Source of the DNA: an uncultured Bacteroidota bacterium
GTDB lineage: Bacteria > Bacteroidota > Bacteroidia > Bacteroidales > SZUA-534
Direction: 5' to 3'
NCBI GenBank assembly: GCA_946414435.1
Contig: CAMKOM010000001.1
Location: forward strand, 42,402-106,401
DNA length: 64,000 bases
Below are positions 13,131 to 25,814 of the stretch, one piece after another. Numbering within the stretch: position 1 is the stretch's first letter; each line of letters starts with the position of its first letter. The notes under the pieces were generated by a model. It was not told the origin of the DNA and did no database searches. It saw only the letters and a program-made list of their open reading frames with translations. Made by a program: the position numbers and the translations under genes.

Positions 13131-14993
13131 ATGTCAACTGACGAAGCTAATAGGAACGATGCCAAGATTCAGAATTTGCTAAAAAAACTGGAATCGACAG
13201 AGCCAGAATTATGCTATGAAATAGAGAGTTACATTGACAAAGAAAAAAAATTGCGACAAGATGCCGAAGCCAAACTAGCAGCATGTCAAGAGCAACAAAA
13301 ACAAGATGAACAGTCTCTCAATTTGCTAAAAGATGAGTTCAACAAGCACCTGCAACGTTTCGAACTAATTGCAGAATCTGTAGCCATAGCAAACACTGAA
13401 GAATCCTGCCCGCAGGCGATAAATATGATTTTAAATCGCATTGGATTCCACTTGTCTCCTAAACGTATTCTGTTTTTTATTGACACCCCCGACTCAACAA
13501 TGAGCAAAATTGAGTACCAGTGGGTTGCACATAATGTTATGCCGTTTTCGCACAACACGGCCATTAAATACAAGGAATGCCCGTTGTGGCAAAAGATGCT
13601 GGCCGAGCACAAAATGGTTCCCGGATCACAACAGGACGATTTACCTGACGACATTACTCTGGTACTTGAAAACATAGGGCTGAAAAATGTCTATATGTTC
13701 CCTTTAACAGGCAACGATGGCACATCGTTTGGCTCAATCATGTTCGAAACCTACGAAAACAGCCAGCTCAGCAAACTTGAAATAAGGTATATACAAATAG
13801 TTACCATAGTACTATCAGGCATTATCCACATCTATCGGATTCTCAATGATTTGATTCGGGAAAAAGAACGTGCTGAAGAAGCCGATCGTCTCAAATCGTC
13901 ATTCCTGGTGAACGTGAGCCATGATATCCGCATTCCGATGAACGCCATCATCGGATTTAGCGACCTTCTTGCTGATGAGGACTTGACGCAAACTGAGCGC
14001 GAAGAGTTTATTGACATGATAAATAAGAGCGGTCAAGATCTTGTTACTCTGATAGATAACATTATCGATATATCGAAAATTGAGACAGGGCAAATGACCG
14101 TGAAAAAAGAGATTATACCTATTTTCCCGTTGTTCAACGACATTATGGCCGTGTTCAACAACAACCGCACCTTGGAAGATCGCGACGACCTTACACTGCA
14201 ACTCGACTTGCCGCCAAAGTTTGCCGATATAAAATTCAGTACCGACATTTTCAAATTCCGCCAAATTTGTACAAATCTGATCGACAATGCAATAAAATTC
14301 ACAAACAACGGTTATGTCAAATTCGGTGTGAGCCGCGCTTGGGATCAAACCATCGAATTTTATGTGCAAGATACCGGCATCGGCATTCCGGAAGACCAAC
14401 AACATATTATTTTCCAACGTTTTGGCAAAGTTGATCGAACTTTGACCAACGAATACACTGGTACCGGTTTGGGGCTCTCAATATGCAAGAGCATTGTTGA
14501 AATGCTTGGCGGTGAAATCCGCGTGGTATCAATTCCCGGCAAAGGCTCAACGTTCTATTTCACACACCCACTACAGGAAAAAGTATCAGACTCACTGACC
14601 AACAGCGAGGAGAAATCATTATTCGACTGGAAGGAGTACCGGATTGCCATTTTGGACAATTCCGAACAAGACCGCAAATACCTGACACACGTGCTATCGA
14701 ACACGGGAATTGAAATAATTTGGCTGAACACAAGTGACGATGCTGTCAAATTCTTTGAAAACAACAAACAAGCTGATATACTGCTCATTGAAATGTCAGC
14801 GGACAACATTAATGCGGCCGGGAAAATTCACAGCATCTCATCTGTGCCAATTATCGTCCAATCATCGAACTGTCAATCGAATGACGACCGTCAAACAGTT
14901 CTCCAATCGGGTTGCGCAGAATACCTTGCCAAGCCTTTCAGTGCCTCTAAATTGTTGACTACAATTGACAATTTGTTTACATATAAAGCATAA
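13131..14993 (+). CDS. Cytoplasmic hybrid-type sensor histidine kinase with a degenerate C-terminal receiver-like domain
   Basis: N-terminal coiled coil. H-box SFLVNVSHDIRIPMNAIIGF, N-box NLIDNAIKF, G1 DTGIGIP, G2 GTGLGLSI. The receiver-like tail ends in LAKPF but has ILDNSE and ILLIEMS where DD and the phospho-Asp are expected. Confidence 0.8.
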   Translation: MSTDEANRNDAKIQNLLKKLESTEPELCYEIESYIDKEKKLRQDAEAKLAACQEQQKQDEQSLNLLKDEFNKHLQRFELIAESVAIANTEESCPQAINMILNRIGFHLSPKRILFFIDTPDSTMSKIEYQWVAHNVMPFSHNTAIKYKECPLWQKMLAEHKMVPGSQQDDLPDDITLVLENIGLKNVYMFPLTGNDGTSFGSIMFETYENSQLSKLEIRYIQIVTIVLSGIIHIYRILNDLIREKERAEEADRLKSSFLVNVSHDIRIPMNAIIGFSDLLADEDLTQTEREEFIDMINKSGQDLVTLIDNIIDISKIETGQMTVKKEIIPIFPLFNDIMAVFNNNRTLEDRDDLTLQLDLPPKFADIKFSTDIFKFRQICTNLIDNAIKFTNNGYVKFGVSRAWDQTIEFYVQDTGIGIPEDQQHIIFQRFGKVDRTLTNEYTGTGLGLSICKSIVEMLGGEIRVVSIPGKGSTFYFTHPLQEKVSDSLTNSEEKSLFDWKEYRIAILDNSEQDRKYLTHVLSNTGIEIIWLNTSDDAVKFFENNKQADILLIEMSADNINAAGKIHSISSVPIIVQSSNCQSNDDRQTVLQSGCAEYLAKPFSASKLLTTIDNLFTYKA

Positions 14994-15286: not shown

Positions 15287-16579
15287 ATGAAGATTAGCAA
15301 ATACACCTATATAATATACAAGTCAAATATAACTTATTGGTTTAACGGTATATCAAAGCAATATTTTGCTCTTAATACAGACTTTAGTAAAAAATTATTT
15401 GATGCCCTGCAAACTGAGTTAGGGCAAAATGAACTAGGACGCCAATATCCTACATTTATTAAGGTACTCATAGATGGAAATTTTGTCATCGAAGAAGGGA
15501 AAGATGAAATACAAACAATCAGAAATAATTTTGAGAATGGGCATAATTCAAAAGAATATAAGCTTACTATTTTGCCAACGCTAAACTGTAATTTTAATTG
15601 CTGGTACTGCATCCAAAAGCATATTGAAAGCAAGATGACACCAGAAACCATGCAAAAAATTAAAAACCACATCAATAAGATTATAAAAGAAGACAAAATA
15701 TGCTCTCTCAATATCGACTGGTTTGGTGGTGAACCATTAATGTACTTTTCTGATGTGATTGAGCCCATAAGTCATTTTGCAATTGAGCAGTGTGCAAAGG
15801 CAGAAATACCATTTTCAAACACAATAACAACTAACGCATATTATTTGACAAATCAAGTATGCAACAAACTAAACGAATTAAAAATTGATTTAATGCAAAT
15901 CACTCTTGACGGCAATCGCTGGATGCACAATAAAATTAAAAAGGCCGCTAATAGCGAATCCGCATTTGATATTGCGTTATATCATATAAACAATGCACTA
16001 TCAGCATCTGCCAAACTCTCAGTTTTGCTACGCATCAATTATACAAATGGCACAATTAGCAATGATTTGCTCAACCAAATATGCGAACACATTTCAGCAC
16101 AGAACAGAAGCCGTGTACAGTTTTTATTACGTAAAGTCTGGCAATCAGCAACTGATAGAAATAGAAAGTCCGAGGTTAGAAGTTTTTGGGGGAAAGCCAT
16201 TAATAATGGTTTTAAAGTTTGTGCCAATGATTTTGTTGATGGCATTCCGTGTTATGCGGACAAAAAGTTTTATGCCTGCATAAATTATAATGGCGAGGCC
16301 GTCCGGTGCACGGCCTGCGATGACCTTTATCTCGATGCCCCTGGTTCATTAGGCGAAGATGGCACAATAGCTTGGAATAAAGAAAAAACAAAAAAATTTG
16401 GAACACCAAATTTCGAGAATGCAACCTGTCTTTCCTGCAAACACTTACCTTTGTGTTTGGGCGGTTGTAACAACCATCGGCACATTCCCGACGATAAATT
16501 CTTATGTGAACAAGACAATAGAGTTTTCACTTTTGAAGAAGCAATTGAGAATTACATTGATTATGATACAATTAGTTAA
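15287..16579 (+). CDS. Radical SAM / SPASM-domain peptide maturase
   Basis: CxxxCxxC cluster motif in TILPTLNCNFNCWYC. GGEPL motif. C-terminal SPASM-type Cys pattern CYADKKFYAC...RCTAC...CLSCKHLPLCLGGC. About 90 aa precede the rSAM core. Confidence 0.85.
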   Translation: MKISKYTYIIYKSNITYWFNGISKQYFALNTDFSKKLFDALQTELGQNELGRQYPTFIKVLIDGNFVIEEGKDEIQTIRNNFENGHNSKEYKLTILPTLNCNFNCWYCIQKHIESKMTPETMQKIKNHINKIIKEDKICSLNIDWFGGEPLMYFSDVIEPISHFAIEQCAKAEIPFSNTITTNAYYLTNQVCNKLNELKIDLMQITLDGNRWMHNKIKKAANSESAFDIALYHINNALSASAKLSVLLRINYTNGTISNDLLNQICEHISAQNRSRVQFLLRKVWQSATDRNRKSEVRSFWGKAINNGFKVCANDFVDGIPCYADKKFYACINYNGEAVRCTACDDLYLDAPGSLGEDGTIAWNKEKTKKFGTPNFENATCLSCKHLPLCLGGCNNHRHIPDDKFLCEQDNRVFTFEEAIENYIDYDTIS

Positions 16580-16867
16580 CCATTTCTTCCTTGAGAACAG
16601 TATTACAATATACACTTGGTCGATTTACCAACTACATATTCTCCACTTGGAACTCCCGTTCATTTGCTAATATTACATTTTATCAAATGTGTATAAAAAC
16701 ATTTTACATTCGTATTAAAGAATGCATTACGCTATAAACCAAACTCTTTCATTATAAGCTCTTACCTTTAACCCGTTAACGAACAATAAAACAGGCCTAT
16801 TTTTAGTCGTTTACACGAGTAACCCGAAAAGCGTAGTGAGTAGGGATAAAATTTAAATATTTCACGT

Positions 16868-17017
16868 ATGAAACCAGTAAAAAAAGCTGTAAAAATTATT
16901 GATGAGAAAAAACTATCTACCACCAATGAGAAGGAACTATCCAAAATGATTGGTGGCATAAGGCGAAGTGGTTTTCTTATAACTGGCAGAGAATGCGACG
17001 GCATAAATAATTTATAG
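16868..17017 (+). CDS. 49-aa RiPP/bacteriocin precursor peptide with a double-glycine leader (not in the ORF track)
   Basis: ATG 16868 to TAG 17017 gives MKPVKKAVKIIDEKKLSTTNEKELSKMIGG/IRRSGFLITGRECDGINNL. The leader end ELSKMIGG fits the classical ELxx(I/M)xGG double-glycine consensus. It lies between the rSAM and YcaO genes, upstream of a C39-ABC exporter, and is followed by a strong hairpin terminator. Confidence 0.7.
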   Translation: MKPVKKAVKIIDEKKLSTTNEKELSKMIGGIRRSGFLITGRECDGINNL

Positions 17018-17024
17018 ATTTTGT

Positions 17025-17058
17025 TAGGTCGACAAAGTTTTTGTCGACCTACTTTTTT
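17025..17058 (+). terminator. Rho-independent (probably leaky) terminator directly after the precursor gene
   Basis: TAGGTCGACA-AAGTTTT-TGTCGACCTA (10-bp stem), then C and TTTTTT. It starts 8 nt after the stop codon and lies 40 nt before the YcaO start. Confidence 0.8.
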
Positions 17059-17097
17059 GTCACAATTATATTACGGTTATCATAAAAAAATATTGAT

Positions 17098-18789
17098 ATG
17101 AAAAAATACAAAGAATGCCCGCCCGAAGAAACTATAGCCAGAATAAAGTCTATATTAACCCATAATAATATTAAAGTAAAAGTTACGAAATCAGACAATA
17201 AATTTTTCTATTCGTGCAGAGTTGATATATCAAACGATAAATTAAAAAAAATCAAATTCGGGGTAAATGGGAAAGGTATGACTGAGAACTACTCGTTAGC
17301 AAGTGGTTATGCCGAACTAATGGAATGGCTTCAAAATAAATTTTTGCTTGTAAATAACTCATTATGTTTTTATAAACACTTGGAAAAATCATTAATAGAA
17401 GCCAACATAATTGATGCTGACAACCGTGATAACAATAATTGTTTGTTTTACAATACATCAAAAGTCGATTTCTATTCAGTTAAAGAAAAATGTGTTAAAC
17501 AATTTTCTGCAAATGATTTTCTTTACCAAACAGGAAGCAATGGATTCTGTGCTGGAAATACAGCAAAAGAAGCGATAACACATGGTATTTGCGAGATATT
17601 TGAAAGATTCGCTGTCAAGCAGATTTCAGAGGAAAAGCTATCACTCCCAACCATTCCATTAGATTATTATAAGGATACCAAATTGTATAAAAAAATAAAT
17701 GGACTTCTAAAACAAAACGAGAATATTAAAGTGATAATAAAAGATTGTTCGTTGGATAAAGGACTGCCTGTTGTTGGTGTATTAATAATCGATACCGAAA
17801 ATCAGATTTATAACTTTCAGTTAGGTTCTGATTGCAACCCTATCGTGGCCACAGAACGGTGTTTTACAGAATTGTATCAAAATACAAAAAGCATAATAGG
17901 TGAGCCTTTTTTATTTCATCGTGAACAAACAAAATGGGACGTTGACAGAATTATTGGGTATGGTAGTGGACAATGGCCAATTTCAATCTTTAGCGAAAAC
18001 ACAGATTTTTCATTTAATCCAAATAGCCAATTCTATTCAAATGAAATAGAAAATGATTTAGAATATTGCGTTAAAATAGTAAATGATTTTCGTTGTGATA
18101 TATATATACGTGATAACTCGTTTTTAGGATTTCCAACCTATTATGTTGTAATTCCAGGTATGAGTATGAAAAAAAACAACAGAATTCTTACTGATAAATG
18201 TCTATTCCAAAGCGATTTGTTCAGTAAATTAGACTATATTTCAAAAGAAGAATTATTGAAATTAACAACAGAATTAGAAAATGAGTACAACAAAATCAAA
18301 AGTTTAGATATTATTTTTGATATAACGAAGCATATTCCAATAAACACAAATGATGAACTAAATGAACTTGATTTCGATCTCTTTCTGGCTCTATCTATGT
18401 ATAAATTAGAATTATATGACAAATTCATATTCTATATGGATAAGTTTTTAAAAGATAAAAACGAAAAAGAATATGTCTATTTTTGGGTGGCATACAATTT
18501 TGTACTCTTACACCAAATACAAAAACAAGATATTAACTCAGCAACAAGTATTCTCAGCAAATGTTATGGTGCCGAATTAGTAAAAGAAGTAATAAATGAT
18601 ATGATTAACCCATATGAAATATTCAAATACTACAAATTACCATCTTACCCCAATTGCTCACAATGTAAATTGAAAAAAGACTGCCGAGTTGACGATGTTG
18701 TACAAATATGTTTAGATTTACGCAAAAAAGAAGCATCTGCAAACATTGACCAATGGAAACTTGCTGAAGTATTTGATTTTGAAACTTGA
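17098..18789 (+). CDS. YcaO-domain protein, E. coli YcaO-like architecture with a long C-terminal (TPR-like?) region
   Basis: NGKGMTENYSLASGYAELMEW and SNGFCAGNTAKEAITHGICEIFERF, then SLPTIP and DCSLDKGLPVVGVLI...GSDCNPIVATERCFTELYQ. These parallel, from memory, E. coli YcaO NGKGATKKAALASALGEYFER / SNGMSAGNT..EA..GLSEVFER / SLPEIP / ALERTVTELLQG. Confidence 0.8.
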   Translation: MKKYKECPPEETIARIKSILTHNNIKVKVTKSDNKFFYSCRVDISNDKLKKIKFGVNGKGMTENYSLASGYAELMEWLQNKFLLVNNSLCFYKHLEKSLIEANIIDADNRDNNNCLFYNTSKVDFYSVKEKCVKQFSANDFLYQTGSNGFCAGNTAKEAITHGICEIFERFAVKQISEEKLSLPTIPLDYYKDTKLYKKINGLLKQNENIKVIIKDCSLDKGLPVVGVLIIDTENQIYNFQLGSDCNPIVATERCFTELYQNTKSIIGEPFLFHREQTKWDVDRIIGYGSGQWPISIFSENTDFSFNPNSQFYSNEIENDLEYCVKIVNDFRCDIYIRDNSFLGFPTYYVVIPGMSMKKNNRILTDKCLFQSDLFSKLDYISKEELLKLTTELENEYNKIKSLDIIFDITKHIPINTNDELNELDFDLFLALSMYKLELYDKFIFYMDKFLKDKNEKEYVYFWVAYNFVLLHQIQKQDINSATSILSKCYGAELVKEVINDMINPYEIFKYYKLPSYPNCSQCKLKKDCRVDDVVQICLDLRKKEASANIDQWKLAEVFDFET

Positions 18790-18818
18790 TATAACCTTTC
18801 TGTATTCAAAGATATTTT

Positions 18819-21161
18819 ATGAAAAAAAACACTGTGTCATTTATCTTGCTATTCTTGGTATTTGTATCAAACGCCCAAACCATCACTGGCAAAGTAACTG
18901 ATACACAAAACGAACCCGTACCCAATGCCGTACTCATTCTACAAAACTCCGATTCATCTTTTGTGAGTGCCACTACAACCGATTCATTAGGCAACTTCAA
19001 CATTGAAATCAGCATTAACAATGGTATAGTACAAGTTCTGCATTTAGCCTACGAGAACAAGACAATCAACTTTACTAATGGTGATTTTTCTGTACTGAAA
19101 AGCATAACATTAACCGAAAAGTCAACTGAATTGGACGGCGTTACAGTAAAAGCCGAAGCACCGGCAGTGATTGTCAAAGACAACGCATTGGTTTACAACG
19201 CACAACGAATAAACGAGAAAAAGGCTGTAAGCAACGCTTTCGAATTGCTTCAATACACGCCTGGTATAACAACCAGAAACGATGAAATAAGCCTTGCCGG
19301 AGCATCGCAATTGACTGTGATAATCGACGGCAAAGCCACAATGCTCAGCAACGCTGAGATAGCCGAAGTATTGAAAGCTATGCCTGCAAGCAGCATCGGC
19401 AATATTGAAGTGATGTATAAAGCACCGGCAAAATATGGTGTTAAAGGTGCGCTTATAAACATTGCAACCGACAAAAAACGGCGAGAAACGCCATTGGAAG
19501 CCGAACTTGCAACCGAATACACCCAACAGTTCTACGCACAAGGGCGAACAAGAGCAAATATTGCTTACCGTGGAGAGAAACTCGATATTGATGCCCTCGC
19601 CAATACATCGTATGGTAAAACCAGAAACGAAAATACCGAGCATTCAATAAACAATTTCAACGGCATTCAAACTATTATCGAAGAGTATGACGTTACAGTC
19701 GATAAATATGCCAGCAACATTTTCCGCACGGCAATCGACTATAACTTCAACAAAGACAATTCGATATCACTGATGTATTATGGCAAATTGTCAAAAAATG
19801 ACCACCCGATAAAATCGGGAACCAACTTCATTTATCATACTGGTGAAACGAATTTTGTGAACAGTACAAACAATGATGACCGTAAAAACCAATTACATAA
19901 TATGAACCTAAAAGGCTCATTTGGCGGAGTTGGCATCACTACCGATTATGTTTCATATTACCATAAATCGGAATCAAAATACAAAGATTTTGAAAATGAC
20001 AGCATAACAACTGATTATCAGAACAATTCGACAATGGATATTGACCAGTTGAAACTGCTTGCGAGCTACGACTGGGAGATTAGCGACACGTGGCAGATGA
20101 GTGCCGGAGCGCAGGGGACAATGACCAATTCCGCCACCGAAGTGAGCTATCTCTACCCGAAAAACGGCAATTATGAACTTGACAAAAACAGCTATAGCGA
20201 CAATTTGCAAAAAGAGCGACGGCTTTCTGTCTTTGCCGAAACGTTCAATACCGTATTCGACAGCGTTGAACTCGATTTCACTGTTGAAGTTGAATATTTC
20301 AAATCAGACTACGATGAAAACGTCACAAAATCAACCCTGTGGAACGAATGGCAGATTTATCCGAGCCTGTCGGTTATGTGGCCACTTAAGCGCGACATCA
20401 TTCAGTTGTCATTATCAACCTACAAGAACTACCCAACCTATTGGAATTTAAGTTCTCACACCACACAAATGAACCCTTACACTTTTGCGATTGGCAATCC
20501 AACTCTCAAACCATCAACCAATTACAACTTTAATTTTACGTATATGCTACGTAAACAATATTCAGTATGGACATATCTCTATTATGAGAAAGACGCTTTC
20601 AGAGAAATTCCCTATCAGAATGCAGCAGAGCTCAAATGTTATTACCAGAGTGTGAATTTTGATTATGCAATTTTTAGTGGCATCGGTGGCGAATTCCCAT
20701 TTTGTGTTGGGTATTGGAACCCAACTTTAGGCTGCGATTTAATGTATACAAGGAATAAAATGTCTGATTTCCACGGATTGTCATTCGACCGCGACAAGGT
20801 TTTCTACGATTTATATATTGAAAATACTTTTACAATATCGGAAGAAAAACCAAATTTAAAATTTATGCTTAACGCCGAATATCAGTCGAAATCAATCCAA
20901 GGTATTTTCGATATGAGTGACGGATACAACCTTGAAATAGGTATGAAATGGGCTATTTTGAAGAATTTGATATTCACTACCAATTGGTCCGATATTTTTG
21001 AACAGTGGAACGGATACCCGTCCACAGTGAATTTCAACGGTCAGTATACCAAATTAGACAAGAAACAATTTAACCGTTTCAAAGCATCTATTGTCTGGCG
21101 CATTGGCGGGTTCAAGGCCAAGGAAGTTGAAATGACTGATATACAAAGGATGCAACGATAA
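18819..21161 (+). CDS. Outer-membrane beta-barrel protein with N-terminal carboxypeptidase-regulatory-like domain (TonB-dependent-receptor-like / OMP_b-brl_3-like)
   Basis: Signal peptide MKKNTVSFILLFLVFVSNAQ. ITGKVTDTQNEPVPNAVLIL CarbopepD_reg-like start. Plug-like AFELLQYTPGI. Long Tyr/Asn-rich region with alternating beta-strand pattern. Confidence 0.7.
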   Translation: MKKNTVSFILLFLVFVSNAQTITGKVTDTQNEPVPNAVLILQNSDSSFVSATTTDSLGNFNIEISINNGIVQVLHLAYENKTINFTNGDFSVLKSITLTEKSTELDGVTVKAEAPAVIVKDNALVYNAQRINEKKAVSNAFELLQYTPGITTRNDEISLAGASQLTVIIDGKATMLSNAEIAEVLKAMPASSIGNIEVMYKAPAKYGVKGALINIATDKKRRETPLEAELATEYTQQFYAQGRTRANIAYRGEKLDIDALANTSYGKTRNENTEHSINNFNGIQTIIEEYDVTVDKYASNIFRTAIDYNFNKDNSISLMYYGKLSKNDHPIKSGTNFIYHTGETNFVNSTNNDDRKNQLHNMNLKGSFGGVGITTDYVSYYHKSESKYKDFENDSITTDYQNNSTMDIDQLKLLASYDWEISDTWQMSAGAQGTMTNSATEVSYLYPKNGNYELDKNSYSDNLQKERRLSVFAETFNTVFDSVELDFTVEVEYFKSDYDENVTKSTLWNEWQIYPSLSVMWPLKRDIIQLSLSTYKNYPTYWNLSSHTTQMNPYTFAIGNPTLKPSTNYNFNFTYMLRKQYSVWTYLYYEKDAFREIPYQNAAELKCYYQSVNFDYAIFSGIGGEFPFCVGYWNPTLGCDLMYTRNKMSDFHGLSFDRDKVFYDLYIENTFTISEEKPNLKFMLNAEYQSKSIQGIFDMSDGYNLEIGMKWAILKNLIFTTNWSDIFEQWNGYPSTVNFNGQYTKLDKKQFNRFKASIVWRIGGFKAKEVEMTDIQRMQR

Positions 21162-21195
21162 ATTGAAAATTGAAAATTGAGAATAGAAAATTATA
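21161..21195. repeat. 7-bp tandem repeat AATTGAA x5 (degenerating) between the OM barrel and ABC genes
   Basis: AATTGAA AATTGAA AATTGAG AATAGAA AATTATA. The 15-mer AATTGAAAATTGAAA recurs at 35333-35347. Confidence 0.9.
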
Positions 21196-21253
21196 TCTGT
21201 GTAAATCAGTCACATTAACGTTCCTGACAGTTATCGAGACTGCGTTCAAAAAA

Positions 21254-23449
21254 ATGCTAAACGTGTTCAAGAAATTGCATTTCCCGCTTATTCTGCAAGC
21301 CGACTCAAGTGATTGCGGCGTGGCAAGCCTTGCTATGATTGCACGATACTATGGCGCAAGCATAGATTACGACACCTTACGACAAAGGTGTCAAGTTTCT
21401 CGTGCTGGCATCAGTATGCTAACCATCAATATCGAAGCACAAAAATTGGGATTTGAGACAAACGCAGTACAACTGCAATTTGACACTCTGCGTACCGAAG
21501 CGCAACTGCCGTGCATTGTCTTTTGGAATAAGGAACATTTTATAGTTATACGCCGCGTAACCAAACGCAAAGTGTTAGTAGCCGACCCGGGCAAAGGACT
21601 ACTTGCCTACTCTCACGCCGATTTTCAGAAAAACTGGTGCTGCGAGGATGACAAGGGTTACGCCCTGCTGCTCAATCCTGTAAATCTGGAAACCAGCGGC
21701 ATTGCCCAAAAGAAGAAATCAGCCCTGCGCCAACTTCTGCAATATGCCGCAAAACGCAAGCGCGATTTTGCCAAAGCCGCCGCCCTGCTTCTATTAGCAA
21801 GTCTGCTGCAATTGGTCATTCCTTTTCTAACGCAAGCCGTAGTCGACAAAGGTGTTGAGCAAAAAAACATCAATTTGCTAATTACTATATTACTCGCACA
21901 AGGTGGATTGATTTTAGGACGTACCATAGCCGACTTCGGACGACAGTGGATTACGCTCAAAATAAGTGCTTTTGTCAACATATCAATAATTTCTGATTTT
22001 ATTGAGAAACTGTTGCACCTGCCAATACCTTTCTTTGAAGCAAAGAAAACCGCCGACATTATTCAACGCATCTTTGATTTCGAGCGAATCGATAATTTTA
22101 TGACGCAATACTCAATGTCATTTTTATTTTCGGTGGTTTCGTTCGCGGTATTTGGCATTGTTTTAGCTACATATTCACCCAAAATGCTTATTATTTTTCT
22201 GATAGGCAGTACATTATATTTAAGTTGGATTCTACTCTTTATTGGTCACCGCCGGATTTTGGACAAAACTCGATTCGACCGTATGTCGCAAACCCAATTC
22301 AACACCATCGAAATTGTTGAAGGCGCATCAGAAATACGCTTACGCGACAGCCAAACATACTTTAAATGCAAATGGCGTGATGCGCAAGAGCAAGTGTACG
22401 ATGTTAATTTTAAAAGTCTCAAACTTGAACAGCACAGCGAGTTGGGTGCAACAGTAATAAACGAGTCGAAAAATTTGCTCATTACATTTGCCGTGGCATC
22501 GATGGTGATTAACGATCAGCTTACATTGGGCACAATGCTTGCAGTACAGTATATTATCGGTCAGATGAATAGTCCGCTTGACAAGATGGTGATTTTCGTC
22601 AACCGGATGCAAGACACAAAACTGAGCCTTGAACGCATTGCCGATGTTACCGACAAGGCCGACGAGAACGAGAATACCCCCATTCCAACACTCAATGGCG
22701 GCACCGAAGGGATTTCCGTATGCGACGTATCGTTCGCTTACAATTCCACACCCGATGATTTGGTACTCAACAATATCAACATACATATTTCAAAAGGGAA
22801 AACAACTGCTATTGTCGGCTCGAGTGGTAGTGGGAAAACAACACTTCTAAAACTGATTCTGCAATACTACAAACCTCAACAAGGCGGAATATTCATCAAC
22901 GATGCACAAAACGAACCGCTGACTGCAGGAAAGTTCCGCCGATTATGTGGCTGCGTGATGCAAGACGGTTACATTTTTTCCGACACCATTGCCCGTAATA
23001 TTGTGATGAACGAAAAAGATGAAGATATTGATTACGAAAGACTTGAATCTGCGGCAAGAACTGCTTGCATTTTCGATTTTATTGTGTCGCTGCCCATTGG
23101 GTTTATGACAAAAATCGGAGATGCCGGGTTAGATTTGAGCAAAGGCCAGAAACAAAGGATATTGATAGCCCGCGCAATCTATGCCAATCCAAATTATCTG
23201 TTTTTCGATGAAGCCACAAATTCACTCGACACAGTGAACGAAAAAATGATAACCGACAATTTGCAAAGCATTTACAAAGGTCGCACGGTTCTTGTAATCG
23301 CGCACCGGCTAAGTACGGTCCGCAATGCCGACCAAATAATAGTTTTAGAAAAAGGACAGGTTGCCGAAGTTGGAACACACGATGAGTTGATTGAACGGAA
23401 AGGCAATTACTACAATCTGATTCGTAATCAGTTGGAATTGGAGTCCTAA
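21254..23449 (+). CDS. Bacteriocin/RiPP ABC exporter with N-terminal C39 double-glycine peptidase domain
   Basis: Start placed at ATG 21254 (MLNVFKK) rather than the TTG at 21170, which lies inside the tandem repeat. C39 contexts QADSSDCGVASLAMIARYYG (Cys), KEHFIVIRRV (His), VADPGKG (Asp). Six-TM ABC region. Walker A GSSGSGKTT, signature LSKGQKQR, Walker B LFFDEATNSLD. Confidence 0.9.
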   Translation: MLNVFKKLHFPLILQADSSDCGVASLAMIARYYGASIDYDTLRQRCQVSRAGISMLTINIEAQKLGFETNAVQLQFDTLRTEAQLPCIVFWNKEHFIVIRRVTKRKVLVADPGKGLLAYSHADFQKNWCCEDDKGYALLLNPVNLETSGIAQKKKSALRQLLQYAAKRKRDFAKAAALLLLASLLQLVIPFLTQAVVDKGVEQKNINLLITILLAQGGLILGRTIADFGRQWITLKISAFVNISIISDFIEKLLHLPIPFFEAKKTADIIQRIFDFERIDNFMTQYSMSFLFSVVSFAVFGIVLATYSPKMLIIFLIGSTLYLSWILLFIGHRRILDKTRFDRMSQTQFNTIEIVEGASEIRLRDSQTYFKCKWRDAQEQVYDVNFKSLKLEQHSELGATVINESKNLLITFAVASMVINDQLTLGTMLAVQYIIGQMNSPLDKMVIFVNRMQDTKLSLERIADVTDKADENENTPIPTLNGGTEGISVCDVSFAYNSTPDDLVLNNINIHISKGKTTAIVGSSGSGKTTLLKLILQYYKPQQGGIFINDAQNEPLTAGKFRRLCGCVMQDGYIFSDTIARNIVMNEKDEDIDYERLESAARTACIFDFIVSLPIGFMTKIGDAGLDLSKGQKQRILIARAIYANPNYLFFDEATNSLDTVNEKMITDNLQSIYKGRTVLVIAHRLSTVRNADQIIVLEKGQVAEVGTHDELIERKGNYYNLIRNQLELES

Positions 23450-23467: not shown

Positions 23468-23496
23468 TCGCGATATTTTCTGTATATCGCGATTTA
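23468..23496 (+). terminator. Hairpin TCGCGATAT-N7-ATATCGCGA followed by TTTAT, after the ABC exporter gene
   Basis: 9-bp perfect stem, 19 nt after the stop codon, with a short U-tract. Confidence 0.5.
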
Positions 23497-23529: not shown

Positions 23530-23769
23530 CGTTATAATAAATGTTTAATACACAAAAAACTGTTTGATATTTAGAGAAATAAAAAACAAATAGCATTTTT
23601 TCGCATCGGTTCTTCCCAATTAAAAACCGCCATTTTTTAAGCTAACAGAACAGATGACGATGGTTTTATGCCTCAAGGTGTGAACTATTCGTGTTTATCT
23701 GTTAGCAAGGTTGCTTGGCGGTTACCTTATGGGGAGATAAATCCTAACGAATGGCAAACGCCTTTTTTT

Positions 23770-23985
23770 ATGAGCATTCACATTGGACATAGGATACAAG
23801 AAGTGATTAGGAGTCAAGGACGTACTATTACTTGGTTCTCTAAGCAGATATGTTGCACACGAGAAAACGCATACGACATATTCAAACGTTCCAACATCGA
23901 CACCGAACTGCTTAAACGAATATCCAATGTGCTAAATCATAATTTCTTTCAAGATTTGGCTGAAGACATAAGCTGCAAACAATAA
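23770..23985 (+). CDS. Small helix-turn-helix (XRE-like) DNA-binding protein
   Basis: 71 aa from ATG 23770 (MSIHIGHRIQEVIRSQGRTITWFSKQICCTRENAYDIFKR...). HTH-like pattern TITWFSKQICCTRENAYDIFKR. The listed 105-aa form starting at 23668 is less likely. Confidence 0.6.
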   Translation: MSIHIGHRIQEVIRSQGRTITWFSKQICCTRENAYDIFKRSNIDTELLKRISNVLNHNFFQDLAEDISCKQ

Positions 23986-25745: not shown

Positions 25746-25761
25746 AACTTTAAATTTTTGC

Positions 25762-25769
25762 CAAAAATA
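25762..25769 (-). promoter_or_regulatory. Candidate -7 box TATTTTTG for ettA
   Basis: CAAAAATA on the plus strand, 16 nt upstream of the ettA ATG; the implied leader is very short. Confidence 0.3.
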
Positions 25770-25814
25770 ATTAAATCATCTTGCGTTGCAATTGGTTACT
25801 AAATTTCAAAATGT

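Follow-up and report, generated by a model that had tools for sequence, protein, structure and literature searches.

A probable RiPP cluster of modular, itf-like type from a rumen Bacteroidales bacterium, with alleles carrying a radical SAM enzyme, a YcaO or both

Introduction

Can two unrelated enzymes, a radical S-adenosylmethionine (SAM) enzyme and a YcaO, act on the same small precursor in a cluster for a ribosomally made peptide with post-translational modifications (RiPP), and does such a combination represent a new class? This question is raised by a locus of a rumen Bacteroidales bacterium lying in the window, as we call the whole stretch of 64,000 nucleotides that was analysed (GenBank assembly GCA_946414435.1, contig CAMKOM010000001.1, positions 42,402 to 106,401). 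The locus comprises genes for a radical SAM enzyme with a SPASM domain, a peptide with a double-glycine (GG) leader, a YcaO, an outer-membrane barrel and a C39-ABC exporter, i.e., a peptidase-containing ATP-binding-cassette transporter (PCAT). Exporters of this type cut and export GG-leader peptides, SPASM radical SAM enzymes create thioether or carbon-carbon crosslinks in peptides, and YcaO enzymes activate backbone amides with ATP to give azolines, thioamides or amidines. A first-pass annotation of the window could map the combination to no characterised class, and it did not count a YcaO partner or a barrel among the parts of an in-silico pairing of GG-leader peptides with radical SAM maturases that it named for Bacteroidales.

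In this work, we compared the locus with characterised clusters and with its own alleles in related genomes. The results make it likely that we deal with a modular, itf-like RiPP cluster in which the YcaO would activate a backbone amide, the radical SAM enzyme would cross-link the core Cys, and the PCAT would export the product. No new class of system is revealed. The feature most worth following up is the series of alleles bearing the radical SAM enzyme only, the YcaO only or both, together with a duplication in the leader.

Results and Discussion

The cluster has the layout of itf

A check of the open reading frames (ORFs) in the window recovered the five co-directional genes exactly as the first-pass annotation had listed them:

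15287..16579, + strand: radical SAM/SPASM maturase with a predicted N-terminal domain resembling a RiPP recognition element (RRE), 430 aa; an accessory module of the locus
16868..17017, + strand: GG-leader precursor, 49 aa
16868..16957, + strand: leader of the precursor, 30 aa, C-terminal MIGG
16958..17017, + strand: core peptide IRRSGFLITGRECDGINNL and stop codon; the sole Cys codon at 16994-16996
17098..18789, + strand: stand-alone ItfB-family YcaO, 563 aa, with a helical C-terminal domain and a CxxCx5C motif
18819..21161, + strand: outer-membrane barrel, ItfF homologue, TonB-dependent-receptor-like, 780 aa (CarboxypepD_reg and OMP_b-brl_3)
21254..23449, + strand: C39-ABC exporter (PCAT), ItfE homologue; the mechanical ORF from TTG 21170 has 759 aa

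The AT-rich block described earlier was evident as well. The GC content was 0.35 for the radical SAM gene, 0.34 for the peptide gene and 0.30 for the YcaO gene (0.40 for the barrel and 0.43 for the PCAT genes). The flanking genes (xylanase/esterase, ABC-F and PP2C) have 0.50-0.52, and the window as a whole has 0.46. Searches with Pfam and NCBIfam models confirmed the assigned families of all four large proteins. The 49-aa ORF proved to be a genuine GG-leader precursor, with equivalents adjoining homologous enzymes in other assemblies. The proposal of a RiPP/bacteriocin-type cluster is borne out.

Mining of 1,136 Bacteroidales genomes has yielded three biosynthetic gene clusters (BGC6, BGC7 and BGC8) that combine a radical SAM enzyme, a YcaO, a PCAT and an outer-membrane barrel with GG-motif precursors, and no membrane fusion protein (MFP) was found in BGC6-9 (PMC10352776, Front Microbiol 2023). 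BGC6 is the itf cluster (ItfA-F) of Bacteroides, which was characterised experimentally by Clark & Seyedsayamdost (JACS 2022). PMC11002830 describes ItfB, a YcaO, as forming a backbone amidine with the use of ammonium, ItfD, a radical SAM enzyme, as making a carbon-carbon cross-link from Trp C7 to Ile C-delta, ItfE as a C39-ABC exporter (PCAT), and ItfF as a TonB-dependent-type transporter. The amidine is placed at the C-terminal Thr-Phe bond in PMC10352776. The itf cluster is the only characterised one of this architecture.

Among the loci collected here, L019, L024 and L041 have the itf gene content and encode a peptide (...QIQGG followed by LKSALQEEAYGVVASVATESDNGSLSPWTITF) that agrees with the published description of ItfA. 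When the window proteins were compared with those of L024, the YcaO was 33% identical over its full length (residues 1-537, E 4e-98) with the CxxCx5C motif aligned, the barrel was 27% identical over its full length (E 5e-82), and the PCAT was 43% identical. The radical SAM enzymes shared 22% identity over 214 core residues only (E 1e-6). Their NCBIfam profiles differed too (PapB/anSME/DynA for L024 vs. Clo7bot/TIGR04463/CefB for the window), while those of the YcaO proteins were the same. By these comparisons, the window enzyme is not an ItfD orthologue.

Like the window, itf contains a GG-leader precursor, a stand-alone YcaO with a C-terminal helical/Cys domain, a SPASM radical SAM enzyme, a C39-ABC exporter and a TonB-type barrel, and it has no MFP; in the window, no MFP/HlyD-type protein was found among the five cluster genes and the two flanking ORFs scanned (a hybrid histidine kinase gene and ORF 23668-23985). 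A hairpin follows the precursor gene in the itf-type L024 just as in the window. The two systems differ in gene order and in the core, which is 32 aa long, acidic and ends with WTITF in itf, whereas the unrelated window core has 19 aa, is cationic (RSGFLITGREC...) and, lacking both Trp and a C-terminal ITF, bears no W-x-I-T-F motif. Moreover, in the window's lineage one or the other of the two enzymes can be missing. The Porphyromonas gulae clusters BGC7 and BGC8, compared by description only, also unite a radical SAM enzyme, a YcaO, a PCAT and a barrel with a GG-motif precursor; unlike the window, they bear an aminotransferase-HTH gene, and their precursor has 61 aa, two Cys and a C-terminal Phe. 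For BGC8, thioether links (by a CteB-like radical SAM enzyme) and a backbone amidine have been predicted in silico only (PMC10352776), and this is the same pair of chemistries that we propose for the window.

Given that the window has the itf architecture with homologous, full-length YcaO, barrel and PCAT, the cluster does not form an unmapped class, contrary to the first-pass annotation, and the YcaO partner and outer-membrane barrel are both present in BGC6/7/8 (PMC10352776). The cluster thus has an itf-type architecture where homologous YcaO, barrel and PCAT proteins are joined to a non-orthologous radical SAM enzyme and a new class of cationic core.

An allele series at one chromosomal site

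In close relatives, the right flank (the PCAT, ABC-F and PP2C-LysM genes) is 87-95% identical to that of the window at the nucleotide level, and the cluster itself differs:

Window allele: radical SAM gene present; YcaO present; core IRRSGFLITGRECDGINNL; leader duplicated
L086/L087: radical SAM gene present (87% aa identity); YcaO present (99% aa identity); core ARRSGFVVTGRDCVTNRNA; leader duplicated
L175: radical SAM gene present (82% aa identity); YcaO absent; core NKRSGLRVTGRECTAQK; leader duplicated
L008: radical SAM gene absent; YcaO present; core KNGKRSGFLITGREATVR; leader short
L001-3: radical SAM gene absent; YcaO present; core NKRSGFVVTGRIATAR; leader short

In L175 the barrel gene directly follows the peptide gene, with no YcaO remnant. 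The spacing between the histidine kinase and peptide genes is about 280 bp in L008, whereas it amounts to about 1.8 kb in the window owing to the radical SAM gene, which represents a clean indel of about 1.5 kb relative to L008. Since the radical SAM-only, YcaO-only and dual states all exist, each enzyme can be gained or lost.

The alignment of the peptides from seven alleles showed that the core Cys, located at GR[ED]C, is present in all three alleles bearing the radical SAM gene and in none of the four alleles lacking it. Its position holds Ala in L001 and L008, and the more distant YcaO-only alleles L176 and L177 are also devoid of Cys. The same distribution (3/3 vs. 0/4) was found for a tandem duplication of eight leader residues (IDEKKLST followed by IDEKELSK), which in the window occupies leader residues 11-26 (16898-16945) and reads IDEKKLST and TNEKELSK. 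Of the 24 nucleotides per unit, 16-18 agree between the two copies in the alleles with the radical SAM gene vs. 7 in the equivalent control region of L008. The core motif (K/R)RSG(F/L)xxTGR is common to the window, L086, L175, L008 and L001.

Between the window and L086, the radical SAM gene shows a ratio of nonsynonymous to synonymous divergence (dN/dS) of 0.145 at dS 0.50, thus indicating that the enzyme is functional and under purifying selection. The dS values were 0.38 for the peptide gene, 0.016 for the YcaO gene and 0.11-0.15 for the barrel and PCAT genes, so that the radical SAM gene has its deep divergence in common with the peptide gene and not with the YcaO gene. The notion that the radical SAM gene is a decaying remnant, which its 87% identity to L086 next to the 99% of the YcaO might evoke, was rejected because of the low dN/dS.

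The identity along the locus is mosaic. The peptide-YcaO-barrel cassette (window 16782-21163) is 73-74% identical in nucleotides to L001 and L008, against 87-95% in the flanks, while the comparison with L086 gives the opposite mosaic, with the YcaO the least and the radical SAM gene the most diverged. This suggests frequent recombination within the locus, and the cassette divergence would fit diversifying or recombining bacteriocin-like alleles.

The radical SAM enzyme

The 430-aa enzyme carries CNFNCWYC and C-terminal CLSCKHLPLCLGGC. It matches the Pfam model Radical_SAM PF04055 (1e-11) above the gathering score, and its CxxxCxxC motif (C101-x3-C105-x2-C108) is invariant across the family alignment. 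The Pfam SPASM model gave no match at E<=0.01; the canonical seven-Cys SPASM pattern (Cx9-15Gx4C ... Cx2Cx5Cx3C ... C) is nevertheless invariant among 17 family members, and in the window protein it corresponds to C322-x13-G336-x4-C341, C381-x2-C384-x5-C390-x3-C394 and C407. In NCBIfam, the protein aligns over nearly its full length with radical SAM/SPASM peptide maturases (residues 1-409 with CefB). The matches include Clo7bot, TIGR04463, CefB, PapB, SCIFF and others, all far below the family cut-offs, and the best of them are maturases of Cys-rich peptides.

An AlphaFold model of the enzyme has a pLDDT (predicted local distance difference test) of 87 overall and of about 94 for residues 1-90. 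In this model, the N-terminus forms strands at 7-12, 15-20 and 26-30 and helices at 31-41, 44-53 and 55-63. These three strands and three helices (residues 7-63) make up an RRE-like domain, which is followed by the radical SAM barrel and the SPASM domain. Among fold matches in the PDB, CteB ranked first with a template-modelling score of about 0.65 over the full length, ahead of TigE and SuiB, and of these three CteB and SuiB bear an RRE; CteB (5wgg) was also the best PDB match by sequence (2.7e-8). CteB, a thioether synthase as are others of SCIFF/ranthipeptides and sactipeptides, resembles the window enzyme in having RRE, radical SAM and SPASM domains and a Cys-containing substrate, but the identity to CteB is 17%, and the NCBIfam models of thioether maturases (SCIFF, PapB, QhpD) score far below their cut-offs, although a single core Cys is present.

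Closer relatives, 40-66% identical to the window enzyme and with an invariant SPASM pattern, are abundant in Bacteroidales (e.g., WP_136410955.1 of Muribaculum and WP_135986214.1 of Bacteroidales). Like the window, their loci encode a GG-leader precursor, in their case directly upstream of the radical SAM gene, and a PCAT, sometimes with a barrel, downstream. The cores in this subfamily are multi-Cys (e.g., QNQCPNNATGCACT, KCTVNNVAGCGCS and QCSNSVVGCACE), and a YcaO adjoins in none of 80 metagenomic loci; the window, for its part, has a single-Cys core of the YcaO type. Most likely, as the family relationships suggest, the enzyme was recruited from this separate Bacteroidales family, which matures multi-Cys GG-leader peptides.

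One may therefore ask whether the enzyme acts on the window peptide at all, or was merely juxtaposed to a precursor matured by the YcaO alone. The clean indel, the missing YcaO in the subfamily's loci and the multi-Cys cores that are its usual substrates would agree with such a bystander. However, there is no other candidate precursor between the histidine kinase and YcaO genes. In L175 the enzyme occurs with this peptide type and the barrel but without a YcaO, and the peptide is therefore its sole plausible substrate there. Furthermore, the core Cys and the leader duplication track the radical SAM gene, which is under purifying selection and diverges together with the peptide gene. We thus regard a bystander role as very unlikely and retain the radical SAM enzyme as a maturase of the window peptide.

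The first-pass annotation also referred to an in-silico pairing of GG-leader peptides with radical SAM maturases in Bacteroidales. Membership in this GG-Bacteroidales system (Haft; maturase TIGR04148, target TIGR04149, pseudo-radical SAM TIGR04150) was rejected, as the family models were unmatched by the enzyme, its subfamily and the peptide. TIGR04148 was absent among the 25 NCBIfam matches listed for the window enzyme (the weakest at 31.6 bits) and did not match the subfamily member P0176 at E<=1e-10; the window peptide gave no match to TIGR04149 even at E<=10, and no second radical SAM-like ORF that could be the pseudo-radical SAM partner was found in the cluster.

In two loci (L088:2657-7452 and L090:2647-7452), a second RiPP-like module lies directly upstream of the radical SAM/Cys-peptide cluster and consists of a 57-aa GG-leader peptide, an MvdD-type ATP-grasp enzyme and another CarboxypepD_reg/OMP_b-brl_3 barrel. 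The two modules together make up a RiPP island.

The YcaO enzyme and its family

The YcaO matches PF02624 (2.6e-42). Its Glu-containing motifs (E73/E76, E166/E169 and E253/E258) are invariant among 17 homologues, as are the catalytic Glu/Arg columns across the homologues. Its best NCBIfam match is the E. coli-type equivalog NF040716 (124 bits vs. a cut-off of 700), and the best PDB match by sequence is E. coli YcaO 4q84 (58 bits), which is likewise stand-alone, of similar length and has a C-terminal helical domain.

These matches, along with the annotation of some homologues as E. coli-type by JGI, might be taken to mean that the enzyme is a housekeeping YcaO (an accessory factor of S12 methylthiolation by RimO) placed beside a bacteriocin exporter by chance. 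We find this scarcely credible and rejected it: the equivalog model failed by a wide score gap, and the context is a RiPP cluster. In addition, close alleles differ in whether they carry the gene at all (it is missing from L175), and its GC content departs from that of the flanking housekeeping genes. A GG-leader ORF adjoins the YcaO in every close relative inspected and in about 30 of the 77 loci of the family, and ItfB, the relative that has been characterised, acts in a RiPP pathway (PMC11002830).

To place the enzyme in its family, species-representative genomes were scanned with the YcaO alignment, and 78 loci were retrieved from a total of at least 537 relatives. Neighbours were counted in 77 of them, within 7 kb and on the same strand, with radical SAM genes identified by an iterated hidden Markov model (HMM) and a CxxxCxxC filter; phmmer with the window radical SAM enzyme undercounts them (21/77 vs. 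36/77 by HMM) and misses the ItfD-like gene. Radical SAM enzymes of several subfamilies occur in 36 loci, a homologous barrel in 23 and a PCAT in 16, while all three are near the YcaO in four loci, two of which are itf loci. The cores belong to several unrelated types (...YDGGTLQEIIVTP, ...DLEEVTQTGKKK, WTITF, Cys-rich, and (K/R)RSGFxxTGR as in the window). A survey of bacteriocins in the Hungate1000 collection and a paper on graspetide phylogenomics contained nothing specific on this YcaO clade.

A lone YcaO with 67% identity to that of the window was met at L004:8295-12258 and L179:7127-7999, where it lies amid up to 12 tandem GG-leader genes with the common leader MKT(I/V)(D/N)VKKQxx(L/I)(I/V)GG and short hypervariable cores rich in Lys and Arg; no PCAT, barrel or radical SAM gene was found within 8-10 kb. 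Another distinct type (L005-L007 and L009) comprises a radical SAM enzyme, an S41 peptidase, a 65-aa GG-leader peptide with the Cys-rich core DEACDAVCLPDEMGGCSCHSGILA and the YcaO, without a PCAT or barrel.

The reaction catalysed in the window could differ from that of ItfB within the same architecture, giving an azoline from a Ser, Thr or Cys of the core, or a thioamide, instead of an amidine. The core does hold Ser4, Thr9 and Cys13, the identity to the ItfB-like YcaO is just 33%, and all three outcomes are on record for YcaO enzymes (Burkhart et al. 2017, as cited in PMC10352776). On the other side, no E1-like/Ocin-ThiF partner, azoline dehydrogenase or TfuA was found among the five cluster genes and the same two flanking ORFs, and the scores were low both with the SagD/TOMM model TIGR03604 (48.9 vs. 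a cut-off of 219) and with the McrA thioamidation model (42 vs. 365). The YcaO-only alleles L001 and L008 lack Cys, and related cores of L004 such as NKKVRKIKKNAKKI are devoid of any Ser, Thr or Cys; a backbone reaction independent of side chains is therefore favoured and an azoline disfavoured. Taken together, an azoline or thioamide product looks unlikely to us, and we keep the amidine as the preferred outcome. Assignment to an azoline-forming system of the thiazole/oxazole-modified microcin (TOMM)/linear azole-containing peptide (LAP) type or to a thiopeptide YcaO system was rejected on the sub-cut-off TIGR03604 score and the missing partner and dehydrogenase among the genes scanned.

Near its C-terminus, the YcaO contains P-x-C-x2-C-x5-C (NCSQCKLKKDC; window 18640-18680, residues ~515-528), which is common to the itf-type YcaO proteins, with C523 nearly invariant across the family. 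Possibly, the motif binds a metal or an Fe-S cluster; according to PMC11002830, ItfB has a fused domain. In L177:2101-3749 and L178:1910-3558, the YcaO is split into two ORFs (115 aa and 426 aa), while the peptide, barrel and PCAT genes are intact; this may reflect a frameshift or a pseudogene. Bacteroides/Prevotella-type YcaO loci, one of them itf-type, were also met in metagenome-assembled genomes labelled Bacilli, Streptococcus and Faecalimonas (L019, L030 and L055), probably owing to binning errors and not to horizontal transfer.

Precursor, exporter and barrel

The leader of the precursor ends with ...ELSKMIGG and is followed by core IRRSGFLITGRECDGINNL; the ORF ends 80 nt upstream of the YcaO gene. 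Two hairpins accompany the operon:

17025..17061, + strand: terminator/attenuator-like hairpin directly 3' of the precursor gene, 12-bp stem, then CTTTTTTGTC
23468..23492, + strand: terminator-like hairpin at the operon end, 9-bp stem, then a T-rich tail

The first one (also delimited as 17025-17051) is stable and has a T-run. Of 11 loci inspected, 10 have a stable hairpin of differing sequence 3' of the precursor stop codon, the itf-type L024 among them, and L005 (-5.7 kcal/mol) is the one that departs from this. A scan for sigma-70 promoters gave 38 matches vs. 33 expected, with a model unsuited to Bacteroidota promoters.

In the exporter, Pfam detects Peptidase_C39 PF03412 (2e-35), ABC_membrane PF00664 (4e-27) and ABC_tran PF00005 (4.5e-26), and the C39 contexts Q..DCG and HF(I/V)V align with those of the L024 PCAT; for none of the PCAT subfamilies in NCBIfam does the score reach the curated cut-off. 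Most likely, translation starts not at TTG 21170 but at ATG 21254 (MLNVFKK..., 731 aa), because a protein of 731 aa matches L086, fits the L086 and L001 lengths, and homologue alignments begin there. The barrel matches CarboxypepD_reg (1.3e-10), OMP_b-brl_3 (1.8e-40) and, weakly, Plug.

Proposed pathway and its meaning

Based on homology and on the allele series, the likely pathway is as follows. With ATP, the ItfB-family YcaO would activate one of the backbone amides in the short cationic core, most likely giving an amidine by homology to ItfB. The RRE-bearing radical SAM enzyme would dock on the duplicated leader segment and cross-link Cys43 to a nearby residue, most likely as a thioether. 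The PCAT would then cleave after Gly30 of the GG motif and export the 19-mer, whose passage through the outer membrane the TonB-type barrel may serve, unless this barrel functions in uptake or immunity. The hairpin behind the precursor gene probably holds the precursor mRNA in excess over the enzyme mRNA. What we infer from these relationships comprises both chemistries, the order of the steps, the barrel's role and the bioactivity. The processing of a single-Cys core by both enzymes, as put forward in the first-pass annotation, is plausible.

Several points weigh against this pathway. The three alleles with the radical SAM gene share the leader duplication and probably form one lineage derived from one recruitment event; their correlation with Cys is therefore essentially a single event, suggestive but not statistical. 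Some cores with Cys in L004 have no radical SAM gene nearby, and the cores of the radical SAM subfamily normally have at least three Cys in a C..N..GCxC pattern, which the window core with its single Cys does not show. The site of ItfB is the C-terminal Thr-Phe bond, a C-terminus that the window core lacks, and with an identity of 33% the enzyme may depart from ItfB both in the site and in the kind of reaction, be it towards an amidine, azoline or thioamide. Finally, we infer that L024 is an itf-type locus from its ...SPWTITF peptide and gene content, i.e., from the published description, not from an accession; the Itf proteins WP_004319383.1 and WP_004319392.1 were both absent from the abundant Bacteroidales clusters that were looked up by accession.

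A broader reading can be offered tentatively, as possible though rather doubtful: the locus may be a natural plug-and-play RiPP, where two unrelated maturases, each gained or lost, act independently on one core. In such a case, the radical SAM enzyme would have been recruited through the leader duplication, which gave a chimeric leader with separate docking sites, and through an Ala-to-Cys change, and the product would be a 19-mer with a thioether and an amidine (or another YcaO modification), a chemotype that has yet to be isolated.

GG-leader peptides of unrelated core types often lie alongside the members of the large ItfB-type YcaO family. Compared with the single characterised cluster, the locus brings in another radical SAM partner and a class of short cationic cores. 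As the radical SAM-only, YcaO-only and dual alleles occur in near-isogenic backgrounds, they constitute a ready-made natural experiment. The series can pair each modification with its enzyme and test the leader duplication in the recruitment of a second maturase, which is of use both to RiPP engineering and to the study of peptide-mediated competition in the rumen and gut.

Neighbouring genes

Upstream of the cluster lies one further gene that is possibly its optional neighbour:

13131..14993, + strand: hybrid histidine kinase/response-regulator gene (Pfam HisKA, HATPase_c, Response_reg), GC content 0.42

The kinase gene adjoins the cluster in the window, in L008 (82% nucleotide identity) and in L175 (88%), whereas in L086 (4632-5495) and L001 (8613-9422) a PAP2 phosphatase gene, following NrdD/NrdG, takes its place. 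GG-leader/PCAT systems export pheromones as well as bacteriocins, and the product could accordingly be a signalling peptide sensed by the adjacent kinase rather than an antimicrobial bacteriocin. At the corresponding place in L001 and L086, however, the kinase is missing. Neither an immunity gene nor a cognate DNA-binding regulator was identified. The short, strongly cationic cores, the diversification of the cassette and the multi-peptide arrays of L004 are more typical of antagonistic peptides, though not decisive. We judge a signalling role to be somewhat unlikely and lean towards an antagonistic peptide. The left boundary of the cluster is mosaic independently of the presence of the radical SAM gene.

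Downstream of the PCAT gene, in a spacer of low GC content (0.35), a 105-aa ORF (window 23668-23985, + strand) has no Pfam/NCBIfam match. It is kept in L086, and a 74%-identical stretch is found about 1.3 kb upstream of the YcaO gene in L176 (6369-6733). This ORF might be an unrecognised component of the cluster, e.g., a regulator or an immunity gene. Farther downstream, L086 has an extra DUF6922 gene (L086:16282-16756) between the ABC-F and PP2C-LysM genes, where the window has a gap of 62 bp (25747-25809).

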